In this document: piece by piece, positions 7,628-59,597 of the stretch | Position numbering within the stretch: the stretch's first letter is position 1 | Layout of the letters: each line of letters begins with the position of its first letter | DNA from: a virus | Lineage: Duplodnaviria; Caudoviricetes | DNA: 64,000 bases | IMG/VR virus record: IMGVR_UViG_3300037448_000016 | Span: 13,935 to 77,934 of that record | Strand: one strand, 5' to 3' | Translations under genes and position numbers: made by a program | Notes under the pieces: model-generated | Databases searched by the model: none | Told to the model about the DNA's origin: nothing | Seen by the model: only the letters and a program-made list of their open reading frames with translations

Positions 7628-7791
7628 TGGCCAGCGAGTTGGCCTGGCAGGTCGCGGAACTGGAAGCGATCAAGCAGGCGACCGCCGTCGTCCGCAGCAA
7701 GATGACCCAGATCCGTCAGCGCAACTCAGGTGCCGACCCGATCAAGGTCAAGGTCGTTGACGTCGAACTGGATGTCCAGGTGGCCGGATGA
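7627..7791 (+). CDS. Small hypothetical protein (54 aa)
   Basis: TGATG and ATGA coupling; MASELAWQ... Confidence 0.6.
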   Translation: MASELAWQVAELEAIKQATAVVRSKMTQIRQRNSGADPIKVKVVDVELDVQVAG

Positions 7792-8291
7792 CCAAGGTGC
7801 ATTGGGCGACCGTCCAGATCGGAGACATTCTCCGGCTGGGCGGTTTCGCCTATGAGGTGATGGCCGAGGATCGCGTGGCCAACACGGTGACGGTGCGCAA
7901 GCCGGACGGCAGCCTGTTCACGAACGCCCGGCCTGACGCGCTGGTGGAGCGGATCTTCTCCGCCGAGGAGGCCATGTCGAACGCCGAGTCGGTCATCGTG
8001 ACCCGGCTCGGCGGGGTGGTGTCCGGCCGCCAGCGCGCCGACGGCTCGTGGACCATGCCGGAGTCGTACCCTGAGCCGGGTAGCCTGCTCGCGCACCTGA
8101 TGATCGGCCACGGGATCACCGAGTGGTCGGAGATCGATCCGGACGACGGTGGCACCGAGAGCCTGCGGGCCGTCACGAAATACCACGCCAGGAAGCACGA
8201 TCCGGGCGCCAAGCAGGGCGAAGGCTACCTGCCTCACGTCCACGACCCGCTATTCCTAGGGAGCACAGAACATGTCCGTCAGTCATCCTGA
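7788..8291 (+). CDS. Hypothetical phage protein
   Basis: 167-aa ORF in operon. Confidence 0.65.
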   Translation: MTKVHWATVQIGDILRLGGFAYEVMAEDRVANTVTVRKPDGSLFTNARPDALVERIFSAEEAMSNAESVIVTRLGGVVSGRQRADGSWTMPESYPEPGSLLAHLMIGHGITEWSEIDPDDGGTESLRAVTKYHARKHDPGAKQGEGYLPHVHDPLFLGSTEHVRQSS

Positions 8292-8559
8292 GTACGGGGC
8301 GCCGCCGATCGAGCGGCCCAACATGGAGAAGATCTGGGACAAGGCGCGGGCCGACGCGCGGGCGGAGGGTGCTCAGGAACGAGCCACCCTCCGCCGCGAA
8401 CTCCATCACCAGACGCTGACCTGGCTGGAGACGACCTTCCCCAAGACGAAACTCACGGTCGCTCAGAAGGATTCTCTGGCTGAGGTGTTCGGGCTGGGTC
8501 CAGTACCAGCCGGACTGAGCCCGGACTCAGACCCAGCAGGGCAATCTCGGCTTCCGTAA
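8272..8559 (+). CDS. Hypothetical phage protein
   Basis: 95-aa ORF with GGGAG RBS. Confidence 0.55.
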   Translation: MSVSHPEYGAPPIERPNMEKIWDKARADARAEGAQERATLRRELHHQTLTWLETTFPKTKLTVAQKDSLAEVFGLGPVPAGLSPDSDPAGQSRLP

Positions 8560-8782
8560 AGCCGTACTCCCGCAGGAACTTGCGCGCCCTGCCGGACACC
8601 TGACGTTTCGGGCAGCCGCCCTCGTGGATCGCCACGAGGGCGGCTGTTTTTTCTGCCTGGGCCACGGCGAGCCGGGCCTTCGCTTTCAGCACGGACAGTG
8701 CCGCAGCGGACAGCCGTTCCATCGGGCTCTGCTCGATCGGCCGGGTCGCGAAGTGTGGCGGTGGGGGCATCTTGTCGACCAT
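8453..8782 (-). CDS. Hypothetical protein, possible HTH; last gene of the T4SS operon
   Basis: TAGGAG RBS before MVDKMP; C-terminal FTEAEIALLGLSPGSVRLVL is HTH-like. Confidence 0.55.
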   Translation of the reverse strand: MVDKMPPPPHFATRPIEQSPMERLSAAALSVLKAKARLAVAQAEKTAALVAIHEGGCPKRQVSGRARKFLREYGFTEAEIALLGLSPGSVRLVLDPARTPQPENPSERP

Positions 8783-8790
8783 GGGTGCTC

Positions 8791-9744
8791 CTAGTGCTTC
8801 ACTGAGACGTGGACGTGGTTGACGTGGTCGAGCGTGTCGCTGTGCCCACCGGAAGGGTGGGCGTAAGGGCGCCATTGCCCGGTCTCGCTGGTGAAGATCC
8901 GCTTGTTGAAGATGACGTAGTGCCCACCGACCTGGGCCAGGTTCGCGGCCCAGTAGTCCGCTATCTCCTGTCCGAGGTCGTGCTTGTCGGCGGATCGGTA
9001 GTCGCTGCCCAGCATGATGTCCACGGCGTTTCCGGTCGCGTGGTCGGACAGCGTGCCGGTGCCAGCGATCGTGCGGTAGGCGTACCCACCGATCGAGGAG
9101 ATGCACGGCGGCGGGTTCGTGGCGCAGCCCCAGTCTTTCAGCGTCAGGGCTTTGATGTTCTCCGCGCGGGGGCGTAAGCCGTCGCCCCCTTGCGGTCCAC
9201 TCCCCGGATCGGACAGCGCTCCGTCCGCCACGGCGTTGCAGTCCAGACCGAGCCCGTCGACCGCCTCCTGAGCCGCCCCGATGAACTGCCGGTACGATCC
9301 TGACCAGAACGTGACCCAGGGAGAGAAACCATGCGCATCGGTCCATATCTGGAAGGCCACCGAGGCATTGAAGGCTGGATCGTGCCAGTCGCCGTGCGCC
9401 AGAAGGGCCGCGTGTACCGAGTTGATCTGCCACAGGCCGTAATCCGTGGACCCGTTGGTGTTCAGATTCGTGATATTTGCGTTCCATCCGGACTCCGCGT
9501 GCGCAATGGCCACAGCAGTGACCAGGTTGTCTCCGCGAAATCCAGCGGCCAGCGCGGCTTTCGCTACGGCAGCACCATCGCTGGCCGCGTGCCCCGTGAT
9601 GGAGCACGCCTGGCTGGCCGGACCGCCGCCGAGAGCCAGCGATGGAACCGGCGGAGCGCCGCCGCCCGGCAGGCCCGTGAACAGGACCGCCAGGACGGCA
9701 AGGGCCGCCGCACCGGCCAGCGCTAGGCGCTTCAATCCGCCCAC
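8791..9744 (-). CDS. VirB1/TcpG-like cell-wall hydrolase: lytic transglycosylase plus C-terminal M15-like Zn-peptidase domain
   Basis: N-terminal TM/signal; AVAIAHAESG...DYGLWQIN (SLT); SDHATGNAVD...HVNHVHVS. Confidence 0.8.
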   Translation of the reverse strand: MGGLKRLALAGAAALAVLAVLFTGLPGGGAPPVPSLALGGGPASQACSITGHAASDGAAVAKAALAAGFRGDNLVTAVAIAHAESGWNANITNLNTNGSTDYGLWQINSVHAALLAHGDWHDPAFNASVAFQIWTDAHGFSPWVTFWSGSYRQFIGAAQEAVDGLGLDCNAVADGALSDPGSGPQGGDGLRPRAENIKALTLKDWGCATNPPPCISSIGGYAYRTIAGTGTLSDHATGNAVDIMLGSDYRSADKHDLGQEIADYWAANLAQVGGHYVIFNKRIFTSETGQWRPYAHPSGGHSDTLDHVNHVHVSVKH

Positions 9745-10208
9745 GTCAGGCCGGTGCAGAGCCAGTCGCCGGAGACGACGTCCATCGTGACGAGCAGCGC
9801 GCCCCGGTTGGTGGGTACGCTGATCTCCTGCTCGGTCGGGCCGTCTTTCGACACGGTGGCCGAGCCGGTGATCACGGCATCCTTGGGCGCCTCGTTCGTC
9901 GTCAGGTCTTCCAGCACCGGCGGGGAGTACAGGTCGTCGTTCATCACGCCCCGGAACCAGCCGTCAACGGCGCTGATGGCGTCAGGGACGGCCGATCCGT
10001 GGGCGGGCCAGGTGAACGGGTCGGTGCCGGACGGCGATGGCGTCTGCGGGGTGTAGACGGGCGGCCGGGGCCCGGCCGTCGTGGTCGGGCTCGCTTCGGT
10101 CTTCGGGCCGGGCAGGTGGCTGACCGACCGGGCGATGTTGAACCCGGCCAGCACAGCGATCACGGTGAGCAGGGCGGCGATGGTGATTCTCTGGCGGTTG
10201 TTGTTCAT
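9732..10208 (-). CDS. Bitopic conjugation protein, VirB8/TcpC-like (inferred)
   Basis: One N-terminal TM, P/T linker, C-terminal VPTNRGALLVTM...GDW beta-rich domain; operon position. Confidence 0.5.
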   Translation of the reverse strand: MNNNRQRITIAALLTVIAVLAGFNIARSVSHLPGPKTEASPTTTAGPRPPVYTPQTPSPSGTDPFTWPAHGSAVPDAISAVDGWFRGVMNDDLYSPPVLEDLTTNEAPKDAVITGSATVSKDGPTEQEISVPTNRGALLVTMDVVSGDWLCTGLTWAD

Positions 10209-12082
10209 GGCGTGCCTTCCGGGTCGCTGGTGCTGGTGTCGAACATCTGACGGTGCCTGTTCTGCGCGGCTTTACGCGCTTCCTCCCGGTCCTGCTCGGC
10301 GGCCATCCGGGCGTATTCCTCACGGACCACGTCCAGCGGCCGGGTGTAGAACTCGGTCTGCGTGTTGGCCGGTGGCGGTACCGGGTCCGGAACGAACTCC
10401 TCACCGGCCTGGGACGGCCGGTACAGCACCGCGCCGGGCGCCTCCGAGCCCTCGTCGTCGCTGGGCTCGGAGGCGGGTGCGGCCTGAGCCGAGGTGAGGT
10501 AAGACGTGACGTGGGCGTGGGCGTCACGGACCCGCTCCATCCGCTCCTCGTGCTCCTCCTCGCTCTCCCGCGCCCCGGCGGCGGCGCCCTTGCTGACGGC
10601 CCAGGCCATGGCGCCGATGCCGGTGACCTTGCCGACCACGTGCCGGACCAGCCTGCCGTGCCCGCGTATGCGACCGGCGCTCATCAGCGCGAGCGCTTTC
10701 CGGTCGGGCCGCAGCGCCGTCCAGAAAATGAAGACACCCAGGCCCATCAGCAGGAAAGACACCCACGTCGGCCAGCCCGGCTGCATCACGGCCTCGGTGT
10801 AGACGGTATAGAGCCAGGTCCCGATCGCTGCGGTCACCACGATGCCGAGCGCCTGCGACGTGGTGTCGAGCAGCCCCTTGCCCGTCCGGTGCCCCTGCGG
10901 AGTGACCAGCCACGGCGAGGCGAGCAGCCAGACGATCCCGAGGATGGCCAGCAGCAGGATGCACATGATCATCAGGAGGTTGGCGAAGATCCGGAAGAAC
11001 GCCACCGTCAGCGCGAACGCCATCTCGTACAGCGCCGGGCCCGACCCGGCGGCCTGCTCACCGGTCAGCCACCGGTACGCCGCCGGGTCGGAATCTTTCA
11101 CCTCACCAGCGATCTTCTTAAACGCATCCGACTTCTCTTTCAGCAGCGCCTGGCGATCCTTGATCCGTTCCTCGCGATCGGCCTTGTCCTTGGCGAGCGC
11201 CGGGTCGGTGGCCTGGGCTTGGGCCCAGGTGATCCGGGTGGCGGCCAGCAGCGCCGGGCCGTACGTGCGGGCGGTGTCAGACTCGTCGGTGCCGAACGTC
11301 CGCCGCAGCCAGCCGTCGTAGTGGATGGCCTCCATCGCCCGGTCGGTCGCGGCCTGGGCCGGGGAGGCGCCTTCGTACAGCGACGAGGTCACCGCACCGA
11401 CTCCGGCCTGCGTGCTGGTCGCCACCTTCGTCGGGGCCATGATGACGAAACCACCGATCAGCAGGACGATCATGACCCAGGTGATCTGGCTCATCACACC
11501 CGCCGTGTCGCCGCGCTTGGCGCGCCGGAACAGCATGACGGTGCAGAACAGCAGCCCCAGACCCAGGAACGGCAGCAGGATCCGCTTGGAGATCACCGTG
11601 ATGGCCTTGTTCGCCAGCGTGCCGAGCAGTTTCGTCACCCAGGACGGATCGAACGCGAACCGGCTGGTGGCGTCCGCCGCCGCCGTGGAGGCTTGCCCGA
11701 TGCCGACCAGTTTCCTGGCCAGCGACTCGTCACCCCAGGCGTTCAGGTGCTTGCCCCAGTTCGTCACGTTGATCGAGCAGCCCAGGTCGTAGGTGAACGG
11801 CGACATTCCGGAGAAGCCGCTGGTCTCGTACAGGTGCGCGGGGTCGACCGGCTTCTCCCCGACGTCCGGCGGGTCACTGGGCCGGTCGGCGAACAGGCCG
11901 GGCACGCCGACGCTGGGCAACTGCGGTACGGGCGCGGACGGCTGGCAGACCCCCGGCAGGGCCTTCTCCACGGCGAGGGGCTCCGCCGCCTGGGCCCGGG
12001 AGCCGAGCGCGATGCTGAGCAGTACCGCGAGCAGCAGCACGCCGGAAGCGATCCGGCCGATGGTGGACTTCAGGATCCTCAT
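10205..12082 (-). CDS. Polytopic membrane protein, VirB6/TrbL/TcpH-like
   Basis: Signal peptide, several TM segments, acidic/Pro C-tail; ATGA overlap with VirB4. Confidence 0.7.
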   Translation of the reverse strand: MRILKSTIGRIASGVLLLAVLLSIALGSRAQAAEPLAVEKALPGVCQPSAPVPQLPSVGVPGLFADRPSDPPDVGEKPVDPAHLYETSGFSGMSPFTYDLGCSINVTNWGKHLNAWGDESLARKLVGIGQASTAAADATSRFAFDPSWVTKLLGTLANKAITVISKRILLPFLGLGLLFCTVMLFRRAKRGDTAGVMSQITWVMIVLLIGGFVIMAPTKVATSTQAGVGAVTSSLYEGASPAQAATDRAMEAIHYDGWLRRTFGTDESDTARTYGPALLAATRITWAQAQATDPALAKDKADREERIKDRQALLKEKSDAFKKIAGEVKDSDPAAYRWLTGEQAAGSGPALYEMAFALTVAFFRIFANLLMIMCILLLAILGIVWLLASPWLVTPQGHRTGKGLLDTTSQALGIVVTAAIGTWLYTVYTEAVMQPGWPTWVSFLLMGLGVFIFWTALRPDRKALALMSAGRIRGHGRLVRHVVGKVTGIGAMAWAVSKGAAAGARESEEEHEERMERVRDAHAHVTSYLTSAQAAPASEPSDDEGSEAPGAVLYRPSQAGEEFVPDPVPPPANTQTEFYTRPLDVVREEYARMAAEQDREEARKAAQNRHRQMFDTSTSDPEGTP

Positions 12083-14667
12083 ACCAGTTCCCCTTCGCGG
12101 TAGGCCCATCCTTCGGCACCGGCCGGGGTGGGGTTGGTCAGGACGACGTTACGCAGCGCCTGGTGATAGTCGACGTCGACTTTCAGGCCGCCGACTCGCC
12201 CGTCCGCGTCCAGGTGGACGAACTCGCCGGGGCGTCGGGTCGAAAGTTCCATCAGCACACGGGCATACGACTTGTCCTCGATGTGGAGGATCGACAGCAT
12301 CGCCTCGGCTGGTTCCGGGTTGGCCATCCGGCCGACGAACGCACCGGCCAGGAAGTTGCGCAGTTCGCCACCCATCATCTCGTCGGTGACGTTTTTCAGC
12401 CCGAGGTACACCGCGATGTTCCACTTGGAGTGGTCACGGCCCAGACGGTTCAGTTGCCCGCGCCCCGTTCCAGTGTCGAGCAGGTCCTCGGCTTCGTCGA
12501 AAATGCCGATGGCCCGTTCGTGGCGCGGCTTGCTGAACAGCAGCCGGTCCGTGTAGAGCGACGTCAAAAGGAGGATCGGGTCGGCGGCGTGCTCCGTCGC
12601 CGTCCAGTCGACCCGGTCCGAGGAGTCCGGCGCCCGGCGGATCCCGGGGGTCGAGATCACGGTCAGACCGGAGTATGACGCCGGAGAAAAGTCGTCGGTC
12701 GACTTCTCCGGGGGGAACAGCAGGCGGAACAGCGGCATGTCGGCAGCGTCCCGCAGCGCGGCCGAGACCTGGTCGGCGTGCTCGTCGCCCAGGGTCTCCA
12801 GCCCGTTGATCAGGTCCCACATCGTCGCGTACTGCGTCCAGCGGGTCAGGCCAGCCGCCCGGCGCAGCGCCCCGAAGGTGGCGGGGTGCCCGTACAGGTC
12901 GGGGGTCAGGCACCGCCGGGCCACATCGATCGTCAGGGCCCGGCGCTGGGCCAGCGCCTCGTCCTCCGACGTCGCCGAATCCGAGTCGTAGCGGATCAGG
13001 CTCGGCGGGTTCAAGATGCCGCGCTCGCCTTCGAGCAGGTTCAGCGAGCGGCTGATCCCCCGCAGTTCCGGCATCTGGCACAAGGCCATCATCGGGCCGG
13101 ACGGGTCACGGGCGACCACCCGGCCACCGCGCCGGGCGCCGTGGTAGGCGATCGACTCCAGCAGCACCGACTTGCCGCCGCCGAGGGTGGACACGACCGC
13201 CCACATGTTCTGCGAGCGGCCCAGTTCTCCCCGGCCTTCGGTGGCGTACCACGGGTCGTGCATGACCGGGCGCCGGGCGGCCCCAAGCGTGAAGCCGATG
13301 TACGGGCCCCGGCCGTCCCCGATGGCGCTGGACACGTTCGGCATCCCGGCGGCCAGGTAGGACAGCCGGACCTGACGCTGGTAGCCGCTGGTGTCGTAGG
13401 ACTCGCCGGGGACCGTTTCCCGCAGTCGCATCGCCTGGCCGTGCGCGGCGGTGAAATCCATCCGCATCGCGCCGGAGCCGTACAGCCGCCGGAAGGCGTC
13501 GGCCCGCTCCTCACAGGACTGCTCGGCCGACTTGACCACCCGCCCGTCCCGCTCGCGCGTCTCCTCACCGACGATGATCGCGTTGATCGTCCCGACGAAC
13601 CGGGCCGCGTACCGGGGCTGGCCGGTGGTGACCTGGTCGCGGATCTCCTTGGCCAGCGAGATACCCCGCTCGGTGTACTCGGGCGGCAGTTCGTCGAACA
13701 GCCGGTAGGTGTCGTTGATGTTGATGGCCTTGTTCAGGTCGAGGGTGGCCTGCTTCGCCAGTTCCTCGCCGGAGCGGATCCGGCCCTGCAACGACCACTC
13801 CACGGCGATGGGGGAGCCGTCCGAGTCGACCAGACGCTCGGCGAACGCCTGCCACGGCTCCAGCCCGTTCTCCGGGTAGTGCAGGTCGGCCAGCCGCGCG
13901 GCGGTCAGCACCTGCACGTGCCGGGTCTGCTGCACGCCGTCACGCCATGCCGTGACCTCGACCGTGCGGTCGAAGCGTGACTCGGCCCACCGCACGTCGT
14001 TGGACAACTCGGGAAGGTCACGCACGTCCCAGCCGGTCTCGGCTGCACGCATGGGGGCGGGCATTCCGGGGGCCAGCGAGCGCTCGTGGATCCAGCCCTG
14101 CTCGCGCTCGGTCATGCGTACGGCACGCCACCCGGTCACGGCGTCATGCACACGCTTCTCCTCCGCCAGAAGCGTGCCGACCTCCGCCGACACGGGCGTG
14201 CCCGTGCGTGCGTGCGTGAGGATCTCGCCCCGCACGTCACGGCCGGGCTCCACCGTGCCGACCGTGAACCAGCGGAAGACGATCTTGTCTTCCATGCCGG
14301 ACGCCCCGATCCGCCGCTGCATCCGCACCAGGTAGTCGTCCCAGGTCTCCCCGTCCACATCCGGTACGGGAGCCGGGGTGCGCCGGTCCAGGTCGGCGGC
14401 CCAGGCCGCAACGGGGTGCGGGCGGTTCGTGACGCGCTCCCTGAAGTCCCGGCCCGCCAGTTCGGCCCAGACGTCGGCCGACGCCTCAATGAGCCCGCTA
14501 CGGGCCTCCAGAGGCATGAAGTCCCAGCGGGACGCCCCGATCCGGTACCCGGCCCAGACCCGGCCGTCGCTGGCCACCACCAGATTGGAGACGATCTGCC
14601 GGACACCCGGGGCGATCTGAGCGTGCATCGGAGCCGAAAGGTCGGCTTTCGCCTTACGCCAGATCAT
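12079..14667 (-). CDS. virB4: VirB4/TcpF-like T4SS ATPase
   Basis: About 862 aa; Walker A STLGGGKS, VVARDPSG, Walker B IGIFDEAEDLL, RDHSKWNIAVYL, GEFVHLDADGRVG. Confidence 0.88.
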   Translation of the reverse strand: MIWRKAKADLSAPMHAQIAPGVRQIVSNLVVASDGRVWAGYRIGASRWDFMPLEARSGLIEASADVWAELAGRDFRERVTNRPHPVAAWAADLDRRTPAPVPDVDGETWDDYLVRMQRRIGASGMEDKIVFRWFTVGTVEPGRDVRGEILTHARTGTPVSAEVGTLLAEEKRVHDAVTGWRAVRMTEREQGWIHERSLAPGMPAPMRAAETGWDVRDLPELSNDVRWAESRFDRTVEVTAWRDGVQQTRHVQVLTAARLADLHYPENGLEPWQAFAERLVDSDGSPIAVEWSLQGRIRSGEELAKQATLDLNKAININDTYRLFDELPPEYTERGISLAKEIRDQVTTGQPRYAARFVGTINAIIVGEETRERDGRVVKSAEQSCEERADAFRRLYGSGAMRMDFTAAHGQAMRLRETVPGESYDTSGYQRQVRLSYLAAGMPNVSSAIGDGRGPYIGFTLGAARRPVMHDPWYATEGRGELGRSQNMWAVVSTLGGGKSVLLESIAYHGARRGGRVVARDPSGPMMALCQMPELRGISRSLNLLEGERGILNPPSLIRYDSDSATSEDEALAQRRALTIDVARRCLTPDLYGHPATFGALRRAAGLTRWTQYATMWDLINGLETLGDEHADQVSAALRDAADMPLFRLLFPPEKSTDDFSPASYSGLTVISTPGIRRAPDSSDRVDWTATEHAADPILLLTSLYTDRLLFSKPRHERAIGIFDEAEDLLDTGTGRGQLNRLGRDHSKWNIAVYLGLKNVTDEMMGGELRNFLAGAFVGRMANPEPAEAMLSILHIEDKSYARVLMELSTRRPGEFVHLDADGRVGGLKVDVDYHQALRNVVLTNPTPAGAEGWAYREGELV

Positions 14668-15631
14668 CGATCTCCCCCTGCCGGACAGCGGCCTCTTCGG
14701 CAACGGACACCATGGCTTCGTACGCCTGACCGAACTCCGAGCGCTGCACGCAGAACACGCTCCCGGTCTCGGTGTTGAACACGACGACCGTGCCGTCTTC
14801 GAGCGGCACGCCGTTGGCCGTGACCGCTGCACGCACGAGCACCTCCGTGCCCGTGCCGTCCGCGTGCAGCACGCGCTTCATCTGCACGCGCGTGACCTGC
14901 ACGCTGGCCCCCCGGTCACGCAACCACACCAGCACGTGCTGGCCGAGGCGCTCGTCGCGTGCAGTGGAGTCGAACAGCATCGCCTCCACCACGGGCCTGC
15001 GTTCCCTGTACTTGATCACCATGATGTCCTCCGGGTCGTAGTCGTTCAGGCTGGCCATGAAGTCGAGCAGGACCTGGTCGGCCTGCTCCGTGTCGAGAAC
15101 GAGGGGAAGGACCTCCACGGCGAGGGGGGTCCGCAGCGGGGCGACACCGCGCCACTGCTCCGGCAGCGTGCGCAGCCAGAAGGTCACCGGCCGGTTCCCG
15201 TCGATGAACGGGCGGGCCTGGCGCACCAGCAGGAACGCGACCAGCACGGCCAGCGGCCCGGCGGCCCAGAACGGCGACGGGAAGATCCACTTCGCCGGAT
15301 TCGGGACGATCACGAGGCCGAACAGCACCGCCACCCCAGCGATGACCACCTGGCCCCGCCTGCGGGCCGCTGCGGGCCTGGAGAAGGTCAGGCGGGCCAA
15401 GTGGTCCAGGGCCATCCCGTTGGCCGCCCAGCGGCCGAACAGGGCCGCGCTGAGGCCGACGATGCCGCCTACCGGGACCACCAGCCACAGCAGGGCGAAC
15501 AGCACCGGCACCGACAGCAGGCCGATCGCCCACTCGGTGTACGTCGCGTCGAACGGCCAGCGCCACGCACCGGTCGGCCCCAGCCACGGCGAGCGCAGAT
15601 TGCGCGAGGCGTCCTCGCTGCGCTGGATCAC
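14654..15631 (-). CDS. TcpE/VirB3-like conjugation membrane protein with C-terminal extension
   Basis: N-terminal WLGPTGAWRWPF, four TM segments, PFIDGNRP; directly upstream of virB4. Confidence 0.6.
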   Translation of the reverse strand: MIQRSEDASRNLRSPWLGPTGAWRWPFDATYTEWAIGLLSVPVLFALLWLVVPVGGIVGLSAALFGRWAANGMALDHLARLTFSRPAAARRRGQVVIAGVAVLFGLVIVPNPAKWIFPSPFWAAGPLAVLVAFLLVRQARPFIDGNRPVTFWLRTLPEQWRGVAPLRTPLAVEVLPLVLDTEQADQVLLDFMASLNDYDPEDIMVIKYRERRPVVEAMLFDSTARDERLGQHVLVWLRDRGASVQVTRVQMKRVLHADGTGTEVLVRAAVTANGVPLEDGTVVVFNTETGSVFCVQRSEFGQAYEAMVSVAEEAAVRQGEIDDLA

Positions 15632-15723
15632 CGCCACAACCACCGATCGAACGCCTCCACCGCGACGAGCCCGGCCAGCACGGCACCGGCCAGCACCCCC
15701 GCCACGAACAGCACGGGCCTCAC
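15628..15723 (-). CDS. 31-aa single-TM peptide
   Basis: GTGA overlaps at both ends; MRPVLFVAGVLAGAVLAGLVAVEAFDRWLWR. Confidence 0.55.
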   Translation of the reverse strand: MRPVLFVAGVLAGAVLAGLVAVEAFDRWLWR

Positions 15724-16118
15724 TCCGGCTGCCCGTCGCGCGACGGCTCCGGGCCGAACCCGGCCGACGTGAGCACCTGCTGGAAGGCGTCGAGCGCTGA
15801 ACCGCTCGTGAGCGGCCGGTTGAGCGCTGGCGCCCCGATCCGGGCGAATCGGATCTCCAGGTTCATGAGCCCGTGGCTGACGAGGTGGTCGACCTCCACG
15901 TTGGACAGCGTCCACACCGTGGCGATCGGCTCGGCGAAGAAATGCGCCTTCAGCGCGTCCGCGATCCCGTCCGGCAGGACGCTGGCCGGGACACGCCTGG
16001 GGAGGGACGGCCGGTCTCGTTCCGGGCCGCCCTCGCTGAACGTCAGGGTGACGTCGTCGATGTAGTTGCCTTCCACCTCCCGGCGGAAGTGGCTGAGGTG
16101 GTACTTCAGGTCGCTCAC
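15720..16118 (-). CDS. Hypothetical soluble protein in the T4SS operon
   Basis: 132-aa ORF with GTGA coupling. Confidence 0.6.
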   Translation of the reverse strand: MSDLKYHLSHFRREVEGNYIDDVTLTFSEGGPERDRPSLPRRVPASVLPDGIADALKAHFFAEPIATVWTLSNVEVDHLVSHGLMNLEIRFARIGAPALNRPLTSGSALDAFQQVLTSAGFGPEPSRDGQPE

Positions 16119-16414
16119 TTGCTCAGGAAGGGGACGGACCAGCCGAGGAACGCGGCGGCGAAGGCCAGGCCGGTACCGGCGATCCCGATCGCGCCGGGGA
16201 TGAGCGCGAGCAGGGTGGCGCCGACGATGTCGAAGATCTTGCGGGTGTTGCCCTTGCGGGCGTGCCCGGCGAGCGCTGCGAGCGTGATCCAGATCAGAAC
16301 GAGGCTGATCCCGAGCAGCAGCAGCGCGCGGGCCTTGTTCAGAGTGCTGTTCGGCGTGAAATCGCCGGTGGCGGCCAACTCGGTGGCGGCCTGGAGAGCC
16401 TGCACGTGGGTCAT
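16115..16414 (-). CDS. Small two-TM protein, VirB2/TcpD pilin-like (inferred)
   Basis: 99 aa; two hydrophobic helices around a basic loop HARKGNTRK; first gene of the operon; GAGGGG RBS. Confidence 0.55.
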   Translation of the reverse strand: MTHVQALQAATELAATGDFTPNSTLNKARALLLLGISLVLIWITLAALAGHARKGNTRKIFDIVGATLLALIPGAIGIAGTGLAFAAAFLGWSVPFLSK

Positions 16415-16440: not shown

Positions 16441-16475
16441 ATCAACATAACACGTGTAGTCAGGCCGTTGTCAAC
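16441..16475 (-). promoter_or_regulatory. Promoter/operator of the T4SS operon (repeated family)
   Basis: GTTGACAACGGCCTGAC...TATGTT. Confidence 0.7.
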
Positions 16476-16513: not shown

Positions 16514-16720
16514 CCAGGGATTTTTTGGCAGGGACAGGGAAATTCAAAACACAGGCTCTATGGGCACATAGGAGCAAATAGTTTCTGGAGTCCCTAGAGA
16601 CCCTCTGAGCACGAAAAAAATCCCTGGCAGGGAGAAAACTTCCCTAGCCGGACGGCGCCAGCGGCGCACCCGCTACGCCGCGGAGGCAGTCCGCTACCCA
16701 CTGCGACGGCAGGGAGAAAT
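16514..16720. repeat. AT-rich AGGGA/TCCCT A-tract boxes, site 1
   Basis: CCAGGGATTTTTT (16514) and AAAAAATCCCTGG (16615) form an inverted pair; AGGGAGAAAACTTCCCT at 16629. Confidence 0.75.
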
Positions 16721-16721
16721 G

Positions 16722-16759
16722 CGAAAGGGGCCAGGATCGAAAAATCCCTGGCCCCTTCG
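16722..16759 (-). terminator. Hairpin after the holin gene
   Basis: GAAAGGGGCCAGG...CCTGGCCCCTTCG stem. Confidence 0.65.
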
Positions 16760-47536: not shown

Positions 47537-47596
47537 CAGCGACTTGACAACGCACTGACCAGCACGGTACGGTTCAACCACCGACGACAACGAGGA

Positions 47597-55600: not shown

Positions 55601-55828
55601 TAGGGATTTTTTTTCTTCCCTAGCCTTTACGAATCGCATGTGCAGGTAAAGGCTATATATTTTCTCCCCAAAATTTCCCTGTGGGTACGTTTCCGCAGGT
55701 CAGACCCAGGGACAAAAAATCCCTAGGGAAATTTTTCTCCCTGATTCGACCCTCCGACCGCCTCCGGCGCGCATCCGCGAAGATCCACATCCGACCCTCC
55801 GGGCGGTCCAGGGAGAAAAAATCCCTGG
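55601..55828. repeat. AT-rich AGGGA/TCCCT A-tract boxes, site 2
   Basis: Boxes at 55601, 55708, 55725 and 55808; TAGCCTTTAC/GTAAAGGCTA inverted repeat. Confidence 0.8.
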
Positions 55829-55904
55829 ATGTTGATCATGGAATGGAACACTCACCATGAGGTCGAGGTTGAGGGTTTCGACACCGGAGAGGAGGATCTT
55901 CGCC

Positions 55905-58501: not shown

Positions 58502-58737
58502 CAGAACTGGGCCTGCCCCGGCCGCTGGCAGGTCGCGTGGACCTCGGTGCCGCCGTACGGCGAGTAGGGGATCGAGTCGTTCCGCCCGTCCCGGTTGAAC
58601 CGGCGCCCGCTCTCGACCACGATCATGGTCTTGGTGACCCGCTTGATCACCGAGTGCCGATGCACCGGCCGGTCGGTCCCCTGTCCGGTGATGCAGACCC
58701 GCTGGCCGACCACCTGCTTCTCCTGCTCGATCATCAT
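58501..58737 (-). CDS. Small hypothetical protein
   Basis: ATGA overlap with the ArdC-like gene; IKRVTKTMIVV. Confidence 0.6.
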   Translation of the reverse strand: MMIEQEKQVVGQRVCITGQGTDRPVHRHSVIKRVTKTMIVVESGRRFNRDGRNDSIPYSPYGGTEVHATCQRPGQAQF

Positions 58738-59597
58738 GCCCCTTCGATCTGCGCGATCAGCGCCTTGGCTGTCCGCTGGACCCGCTGCCCGGCGGCCATG
58801 ACCTTGTCGACGCCGCCCCAGTGCGCGACGTAGGAGAAAGACGACGTGCCCATTTCCATCCCGAGCACCCGTCCGACCACGTACGCCACCGATTCGGCCT
58901 CCACTTCGGCCTCGCCCCGGTGCTGCTGGTACGAGTAGTCCTCCGCGAGGTGGCCGAGCATCACGTGTGCGATCTCGTGCAGCAGGGTGGCCACGGTCTG
59001 CGGCTCGTCCCCGGCGAACCGCGAGGAGATCACGATGTTTTTCAGCACGCCGTCGGTGTGCCCGTCTGCCGTGCCCGAGTCGCCGTAGGCCCACGGGTAA
59101 CCGGTCCCGGCCGCGATCCCGGCCAGCGTGACCAGCAGACCTTCCGGCACGGACGTCGCCACGGTGCCGTGGTCGACCGTGGGCAGCGGCTCGCCGTCGG
59201 TCTGCGAGACGTCGAACACGGTGGCCATCTTCCAGCCGACCAGTTTCGTGGCCTTCGGGTCACCGTTGGCCCGCTTAACGTCGTCCGGCACGATGACCGG
59301 CGCGAGCACCTTGAAGCCGGTCGATCCTTTGATCACGTTCCGGCCCGCCTTCTTCCAGACGCCGAAACCGGCGAACCGGGTGACCTCCATGTTGCGGATC
59401 GCGGCCTGCCGCAGCAGGAACAGGACGTTGCCGAACGAGTAGGAGTGGAACTGGGCGCTGAAGTCCAGCACGCGGACCCAGTCCTCGGAGGAACGGATTT
59501 CGGCCACCTGCGCCGCAATGGCGTTGTGGGCCTCGTCGAGCCGGGCGGCCTTCTCTTCGGCGCTCAGCGGGGTGTATGCCTTCGTTTTCGTCGTCAT
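58734..59597 (-). CDS. ArdC-like ssDNA-binding / antirestriction protein with HExxH metalloprotease-like domain
   Basis: YSFGNVLFL, FAGFGVWKKAGRNVIKG, VFDVSQTDG, LLHEIAH and EVEAESVAY. Confidence 0.8.
   Translation of the reverse strand: MTTKTKAYTPLSAEEKAARLDEAHNAIAAQVAEIRSSEDWVRVLDFSAQFHSYSFGNVLFLLRQAAIRNMEVTRFAGFGVWKKAGRNVIKGSTGFKVLAPVIVPDDVKRANGDPKATKLVGWKMATVFDVSQTDGEPLPTVDHGTVATSVPEGLLVTLAGIAAGTGYPWAYGDSGTADGHTDGVLKNIVISSRFAGDEPQTVATLLHEIAHVMLGHLAEDYSYQQHRGEAEVEAESVAYVVGRVLGMEMGTSSFSYVAHWGGVDKVMAAGQRVQRTAKALIAQIEGA

Follow-up and report, generated by a model that had tools for sequence, protein, structure and literature searches.

How does a secretion channel carried by a tailed bacteriophage come by its substrate? 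The question is raised by IMG/VR record IMGVR_UViG_3300037448_000016 (Duplodnaviria; Caudoviricetes), a 77,934-bp virus genome of which a 64,000-nucleotide stretch, bases 13935–77934 (here 'the window'), accounts for 64.0 of the 77.9 kb, with 13.9 kb lying outside it; coordinates given below are those of the window unless marked 'genome'. The window contains a module of seven minus-strand genes (8791–16414), amongst them those for a VirB4-like ATPase, a candidate VirB6-like membrane protein and a cell-wall hydrolase, that resembles a type IV secretion system (T4SS) of the plasmid type. An initial annotation, made from the window, had held that neither a relaxase nor a coupling protein accompanies this channel and that, were the same true of the whole genome, either the substrate must be recruited unconventionally or protein rather than DNA must be exported. 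We find that the 13.9 kb outside the window encode a motor of the TcpA/FtsK class, fused to an HNH nuclease domain; on balance, and short of full confidence, we think that the phage possesses an actinobacterial plasmid-type (Tcp-like, Gram-positive) T4SS module together with a displaced, HNH-fused coupling ATPase encoded outside the operon.

A candidate coupling motor and the search for a relaxase

When the whole genome is searched in six frames, the FtsK/SpoIIIE family (PF01580) gives a single match over cut-off, at genome 3382–3864. This falls inside a plus-strand open reading frame (ORF) of 540 amino acids (aa) at genome 2539–4161 (L001:2539-4161:+), 9,774 nt before the first base of the window, and the encoded protein scores 50.3 bits against a cut-off of 24. 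Proceeding from its N-terminus, the protein consists of an HNH nuclease domain, two hydrophobic helices and then the FtsK/SpoIIIE motor. Across 15 full-length relatives (36–73% identity) the zinc-finger/catalytic residues of the HNH domain (C27, C30, D42, H43, N60, C65, C73 and H74) are invariant, as are the Walker A motif GxTxSGKT (289–296) and the DE pair (383–384); judged from their sequence motifs, both the ATPase and the HNH domain therefore appear intact. The stretch between HNH domain and motor is built alike in 15 of 15 relatives: a pair of hydrophobic helices rich in Gly and Ala leads into a linker that is basic and rich in Pro. By hydropathy, the two helices probably form a membrane hairpin that anchors the motor, and at least two N-terminal transmembrane-like segments are seen in four of six plasmid FtsK-like homologues. 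One relative (P0043), 891 aa in length, also carries the LAGLIDADG/homing-endonuclease families PF05204 and PF14528; these extra families probably mark an intein inserted in the motor.

Comparison of an AlphaFold2 model of the HNH-FtsK protein (pLDDT 83.6) with the PDB, using Foldseek, places first by E-value the coupling protein TcpA of the Clostridium perfringens plasmid pCW3 (6o1w; E 1.3e-17, TMt 0.61), followed by FtsK motors (E ~1e-14, TMt 0.58–0.63) and then by EccC/EssC. Profile alignment with hhalign relates the protein to TcpA with a probability of 98.5 (E 3.9e-15), and a tblastn search of the phage genome with TcpA returns the HNH-FtsK gene as its only match; the NCBIfam model plasmid_TraB also matches the protein, weakly, at 21 bits.

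A relaxase, by contrast, does not emerge. The relaxase families PF03432, PF08751, PF03389, PF01076, PF02486, PF07514 and PF13814 have no match at E≤0.1 in the whole genome translated in six frames, and the same holds for the VirD4-type family T4SS-DNA_transf (PF02534). The tyrosine recombinase family PF00589, which brings the Pfam families examined for a relaxase to eight, is likewise without a match. The pCW3 relaxase TcpM finds no match in the phage genome by tblastn; scans of ~70 ORFs against Pfam, PHROGs and NCBIfam contain no relaxase, MOBscan and fold-level searches of all ORFs not being included; and simple scans of all ORFs for HUH and Walker A motifs provide no credible further candidate.

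Taken together, the family searches and profile scans bear out the statement that no FtsK/SpoIIIE protein, VirD4 or relaxase is encoded within the window, and the lack of a relaxase can be extended to the genome as a whole for every family tested. The coupling-protein half of the claim is refuted, since a motor belonging to the T4SS-linked clade described below lies in the 13.9 kb beyond the window; the initial annotation had itself named such a protein, found elsewhere in the genome, as evidence against its view. Its remark that the window holds no second large ATPase overlooks a D5-type primase-helicase, a DEAD-box helicase and the presumed large terminase. The proposal of unconventional recruitment or protein export is similarly divided: a coupling-class motor exists but, as no relaxase of the tested families is present, the DNA might still plausibly undergo some unconventional processing, cutting by the fused HNH domain and relaxase-free pumping of double strands in the manner of Streptomyces TraB being two examples. 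Export of protein would be a less probable alternative.

Motor, module and their plasmid relatives

On the side of the module, the gene at 12079–14667 (minus strand) encodes, by profile matches, a VirB4/TcpF-like AAA_10 ATPase of 862 aa, counted from a conserved ATG. It matches PF12846 (AAA_10) with 53.8 bits, the cut-off being 27.5, and the NCBIfam TcpF model at 45 bits, whilst hhalign aligns it collinearly with pCW3 TcpF (columns 400–859 versus 400–832; probability 98.5, E 1.5e-15); profile matches to the PDB entries for TrwB and VirB4 (4ag5) are marginal (E ~0.006–0.009), and residues 1–400 match no family. The Walker A (GGGKS) and DE motifs are invariant in 15 relatives. Eight IMG/VR records contain the gene, and the protein has 35 metagenomic relatives at 40–99% identity, several of them on contigs of 74–83 kb.

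The nearest characterised system is the Tcp apparatus of pCW3, comprising the coupling protein TcpA, the VirB4-like TcpF, the VirB6-like TcpH, the hydrolase TcpG and the relaxase TcpM. Both systems have a coupling ATPase (in the phage, a candidate one) of FtsK/SpoIIIE rather than VirD4 type, TcpF matching the phage ATPase and TcpA the phage motor; the component set is shared as well, each having small membrane proteins, one large protein that is polytopic, and a hydrolase for the cell wall. They differ in that the phage has neither TcpM nor another relaxase, in that its motor has an HNH domain added at the N-terminus and a gene lying 22 kb away from those of the channel, and in their setting, a tailed phage of a high-GC actinobacterium as opposed to a firmicute plasmid; identity is only ~20–26%.

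Closer relatives are found on actinobacterial plasmids. In PLSDB, 160 plasmids, with Rhodococcus, Streptomyces, Gordonia and Nonomuraea as the main host genera, carry a relative of the VirB4-like protein (25–31% identity over 83–96% of its length) annotated as 'ATP-binding protein'. The best plasmid matches of the HNH-FtsK protein are FtsK/SpoIIIE proteins, aligning over residues ~178–530 with up to 138 bits and extending beyond the motor region that cellular FtsK covers. A hand comparison of the top-60 VirB4 and top-60 FtsK plasmid lists gives 27 accessions in common, with the two genes spaced 2.4–4.6 kb apart, and an FtsK/SpoIIIE gene sits beside the module in six inspected plasmids, from Streptomyces, Rhodococcus, Brevibacterium, Cutibacterium, Mycobacterium and Curtobacterium; in a seventh, again from Streptomyces, a VirD4-type protein takes the FtsK-like position instead. 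These modules (for example those of Streptomyces sp. 891-h, NZ_CP050694.1; Rhodococcus pseudokoreensis, NZ_CP070618.1; Brevibacterium pAP13, NC_022590.1; and Mycobacterium sp. JS623 pMYCSM03) share with the phage the order of small proteins, 'ATP-binding protein', ~610–850-aa membrane protein and hydrolase, as well as an FtsK/SpoIIIE protein of the same clade. In the plasmids the gene for the latter is adjacent to the module, its product lacks the HNH domain, and it bears a C-terminal extension of ~150–200 aa that is absent from the phage protein. MOB-suite types 120 of the 160 plasmids as non-mobilizable (no relaxase recognised) and none (0/160) as conjugative; the relaxase-less status is thus not special to the phage. 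We found no demonstrated function for these plasmid modules, which, with their VirB4-like protein, membrane protein, hydrolase and adjacent FtsK/SpoIIIE protein, probably represent an unrecognised class of conjugation system.

Does the phage motor serve the phage module? The channel could instead work with no dedicated coupling protein, exporting protein, remodelling the envelope so as to allow release or exclude superinfection, or recruiting its substrate through VirB4 alone; the HNH-FtsK protein would then have an unrelated task in the DNA metabolism of the phage, for instance in breaking down host DNA or in resolving or segregating genomes. Three observations speak against such a separation. 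In a tree, the 15 phage HNH-FtsK proteins and six T4SS-linked plasmid proteins stand apart from a set of 12 cellular FtsK proteins and 11 FtsK-like ones encoded by other phages, the split having an SH-aLRT (Shimodaira–Hasegawa-like approximate likelihood-ratio test) value of 100; the plasmid homologues of the motor, as described, adjoin a homologous module; and the full-length HNH-FtsK architecture is found by profile search of IMG/VR only in four records, each bearing the VirB4-like gene. These are the four of the VirB4-bearing records that are 78–100% complete (an orthologue in 4/4), the remaining four, fragments of 20–62% completeness, having none (0/4); querying IMG/VR with the HNH-FtsK sequence by itself gave no match, and the profile was needed. 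Other phages, such as SPO1-like phages of Bacillus and mycobacteriophages, have FtsK/SpoIIIE-like translocases that resemble the HNH-FtsK protein in the motor domain at 25–30% identity; these align to the motor only (42–50% of the query), group with cellular FtsK and come from genomes without a VirB4-like gene. In 16 other phages with FtsK-like motors AAA_10 never exceeds its cut-off, the weak matches being to the P-loop of FtsK itself.

Other observations favour the separation, or weaken the case for a displaced coupling ATPase. The motor gene lies 22 kb from the module, in a separate operon and on the opposite strand; the module directly follows the lysis cassette in all relatives; and phages lacking a T4SS commonly have FtsK-like motors too. 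Common descent confounds a co-occurrence seen in a single phage lineage, and the tree was built by a 'quick' method, has long plasmid branches and leaves out TraB and TcpA themselves. Neither Foldseek nor the fold separates TcpA from FtsK, the TM-scores being equal, whilst the helices of the phage's own protein, whose anchoring role is read from hydropathy, show only weak hydrophobicity (Kyte-Doolittle values of 0.99 and 1.23). We also know of no HNH-type relaxase. Finally, a search of 185,579 species genomes recovered one relative, in a metagenome-assembled genome (MAG) of an uncultured actinomycetote: on a 3.75-Mb contig (L045:6254-13074) lie genes for a 160-aa protein, a VirB4-like protein, a VirB6-like protein, a 190-aa protein and a CHAP/NlpC hydrolase, flanked by cellular genes (to one side those for TetR, RibD and an M20 peptidase, to the other those for an InhA-like protein, hemerythrin and a luciferase-like monooxygenase), with no phage genes, coupling ATPase or relaxase within ~6 kb either side. 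The MAG has its own 865-aa FtsK and neither an HNH-FtsK nor a plasmid-type FtsK-like gene; the module, then, is able to endure where a motor of this kind is lacking. Weighing both sets of observations, we regard a channel independent of the HNH-FtsK protein as rather improbable, if deserving of continued attention, and retain the displaced coupling ATPase as our preferred reading.

The module genes and the phage that carries them

The initial annotation had drawn the block at 8453–16414. Seven minus-strand genes are indeed present, but the left edge at 8453 belongs to an alternative-frame ORF (8453–9607), and the last gene of the block, encoding the hydrolase, is at 8791–9744. Read from the promoter end, the first module gene (16115–16414) encodes a 99-aa protein with two transmembrane helices by hydropathy, present in seven of ten related loci and matching no family; its size, topology and position would suit a small TcpD/TcpE- or VirB3-like membrane component. 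There follow a soluble, weakly conserved protein of 132 aa (15720–16118), belonging to no known family and detected in only one related locus (L002), and, directly upstream of the ATPase gene, a membrane protein of ~305–329 aa with three transmembrane-like segments (14654–15643; start codon uncertain), whose C-terminal part is kept in ten of ten related loci, the bacterial MAG included, and for which a search of the ESM Atlas with the 329-aa form returned no match.

Beyond the ATPase gene, that at 10205–12109 encodes a polytopic membrane protein of 634 aa with signal/transmembrane segments, kept in all related loci. In the ESM Atlas it reaches a feature score of 0.96 and a model TM of 0.71 to actinobacterial clusters named TrbL/VirB6, of whose members only 11–25% contain PF04610; its VirB6/TrbL-like identity is accordingly a lead and not proven. 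Next comes a bitopic protein of 158 aa (9732–10208) composed of an N-terminal transmembrane segment, a Pro-rich linker and a C-terminal domain, with no family match, which from its size, topology and position may take a VirB8/TcpC-like role. The membrane-anchored cell-wall hydrolase carries an SLT_3 lytic transglycosylase domain (PF18896, E 8.8e-20) together with a C-terminal domain and fills the VirB1/TcpG role; at the same place, relatives have hydrolases of the SLT_3+VldE, NlpC/P60, M23 or M15 kinds. A plus-strand gene for a 167-aa protein without family match (7788–8291) neighbours the module here and in eight of nine related phage loci. Measured against the component set of a Gram-positive conjugative T4SS, a VirB4-like protein and a hydrolase are present, the VirB6-like protein is a lead, a candidate type IV coupling protein is present and the relaxase is absent; to speak of a 'channel' thus seems a reasonable premise.

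The order of genes is the same in nine related phage loci—tail, endolysin, small transmembrane proteins, VirB4-like protein, ~600-aa membrane protein, ~170-aa protein and hydrolase, with Prim-Pol following in those that reach that far—which argues for selection on the module. The ORFs are intact, the VirB4-like proteins are 41–71% identical across these loci, and their Walker motifs, as noted, do not vary. All of this runs counter to the idea that the module is a decaying passenger from a plasmid or an integrative conjugative element (ICE), functionless in the phage; so, too, do its own phage-type promoter and a third-position GC of ~0.9, as in the rest of the genome (overall GC ~66%). What might be said for a passenger is that the plasmid relatives are only 25–31% identical and that the coupling-protein gene lies outside the operon, and we consider it very unlikely.

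The promoter of the module is a sigma-70-like sequence, TTGACA-N18-TATGTT, read at 16441–16475 on the minus strand; a terminator hairpin, at which the lysis genes end, also lies ahead of the seven genes. The promoter belongs to a repeated family in the phage, whose motif, TTGACAAC-N3-CTGAC, stands before both operons of interest: that of the module (16474, minus) and that encoding a 67-aa protein and HNH-FtsK (genome 2328, plus). A common motif fits co-regulation of module and motor and is not specific to them, as many early genes have it, and the genome holds 30 matches with at most two mismatches. Examples occur at 47544, 48361, 49472, 50806 and 59633, many of the matches lying 35–37 nt before a start codon that ACGACG follows; the arrangement suggests leaderless early mRNAs under one regulator. 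A second repeat, the 12-mer CCAGGGATTTTT, has five copies (at most one mismatch; 0.07 expected by chance), confined to two non-coding stretches, 16514–16751 and 55715–55828: three copies lie just upstream of the module promoter and two in the 284-nt leader before a 123-aa gene at 55857, some of them forming CCAGGGA-loop-TCCCTGG hairpins. We considered these repeats as a transfer origin and set the idea aside, as they are not conserved in related loci.

The genome itself is that of a siphovirus-type phage. Its ends are identical over a 127-bp terminal repeat and CheckV estimates completeness at 100%; family matches identify the capsid protein as HK97-type and the portal as SPP1-type, tail proteins are also encoded, and an 1182-aa protein without family match is, from its size and place, presumed to be the tape measure, as a 560-aa ORF upstream of the portal is presumed to be the large terminase. 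Further genes encode an M15 endolysin, the Prim-Pol/D5 primase-helicase, the DEAD-box helicase and an ArdC-like protein. That the record is an artefact (phage and plasmid or ICE joined in a chimeric assembly, or an element that is not viral wrongly classed as a virus) is scarcely credible: the assembly is metagenomic and no cultured phage is seen with the VirB4-like gene, but the terminal repeat and completeness estimate, the capsid, portal, endolysin and presumed tape-measure genes adjoining the module on the same strand, and independent assemblies of 61–83 kb from other samples with the same order of tail, lysis, module and Prim-Pol all tell against it.

Amongst 50,697 GenBank phage records, a search for the VirB4-like gene gave a single weak match, from which we take the lineage to be uncultured; a megablast of the module block against GenBank phages gave none. 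No tyrosine recombinase (PF00589), serine recombinase or ParA was found in the genome, and there is therefore no sign of lysogeny or of plasmid maintenance; the lineage is apparently virulent, a label that follows from the absent integrase and ParA. The ArdC-like protein (287 aa; 58734–59597, minus) combines an ArdC N-terminal domain with a weak match to M78 peptidase. ArdC counteracts restriction and is typically found on conjugative plasmids, and the 287-aa protein thus constitutes a second plasmid-type function in the phage. Outside the window, in the minus-strand early region (genome 7926–9244), a 274-aa protein with a Prok-JAB domain adjoins a YdjM-family membrane protein of 165 aa. PADLOC reports no defence system, only generic P-loop matches (mad8, SspH) and a weak PtuB HNH match.

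A possible second route of transfer

If the HNH-FtsK protein is the coupling ATPase of this module, as its homology to TcpA and to the T4SS-linked FtsK-like proteins of plasmids suggests, the motor might dock at the membrane on the VirB4/VirB6 channel and feed DNA into it, the HNH domain making the cut or nick otherwise made by a relaxase. Alternatively, by analogy with Streptomyces TraB, the pump could move double-stranded DNA. The comparison with TraB extends to an FtsK-type motor, an actinobacterial mobile element and the lack of a relaxase. TraB uses no VirB4/VirB6 channel and recognises clt repeats via a C-terminal winged helix-turn-helix domain; the phage differs in having what looks like a full set of channel genes, and no such C-terminal domain is seen in its motor. 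In either scheme DNA of the phage (or of the host) would be the cargo and would reach a neighbouring cell with no virion involved. Put in its boldest form—that a lineage of apparently virulent tailed phages sends its replicating genome between cells by way of a T4SS derived from plasmids, with neither virions nor relaxase, the HNH domain cutting and the motor pumping into the VirB4/VirB6 channel—the proposal seems to us unlikely.

In the searchable literature, the coverage of which is incomplete and offers no proof of novelty, we came across no account of a tailed phage carrying a VirB4/VirB6 module of its own. In comparison with known systems, three traits differ: a tailed, apparently virulent phage as carrier, the displacement of the motor gene, and the fusion of the motor to an HNH domain. 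Inference of absence from a partial window proved wrong for one of the two components, and the puzzle is correspondingly narrowed, from a channel with no machinery for processing or recruiting DNA to one with no relaxase but with an HNH-fused coupling motor.

Tailed phages and conjugative elements are usually seen as two separate routes of horizontal DNA transfer. Here, phages of a lineage that is complete and forms virions retain a channel of the plasmid type, placed under phage promoters, and a nuclease-fused motor of the matching class, suggesting a second, contact-dependent route by which the phage may spread, and a relaxase-independent way of preparing DNA for a T4SS. The plasmid-borne modules of the same family, widespread across Rhodococcus, Streptomyces, Gordonia and Mycobacterium, are missed by MOB-suite; understanding them would improve the prediction of plasmid mobility.

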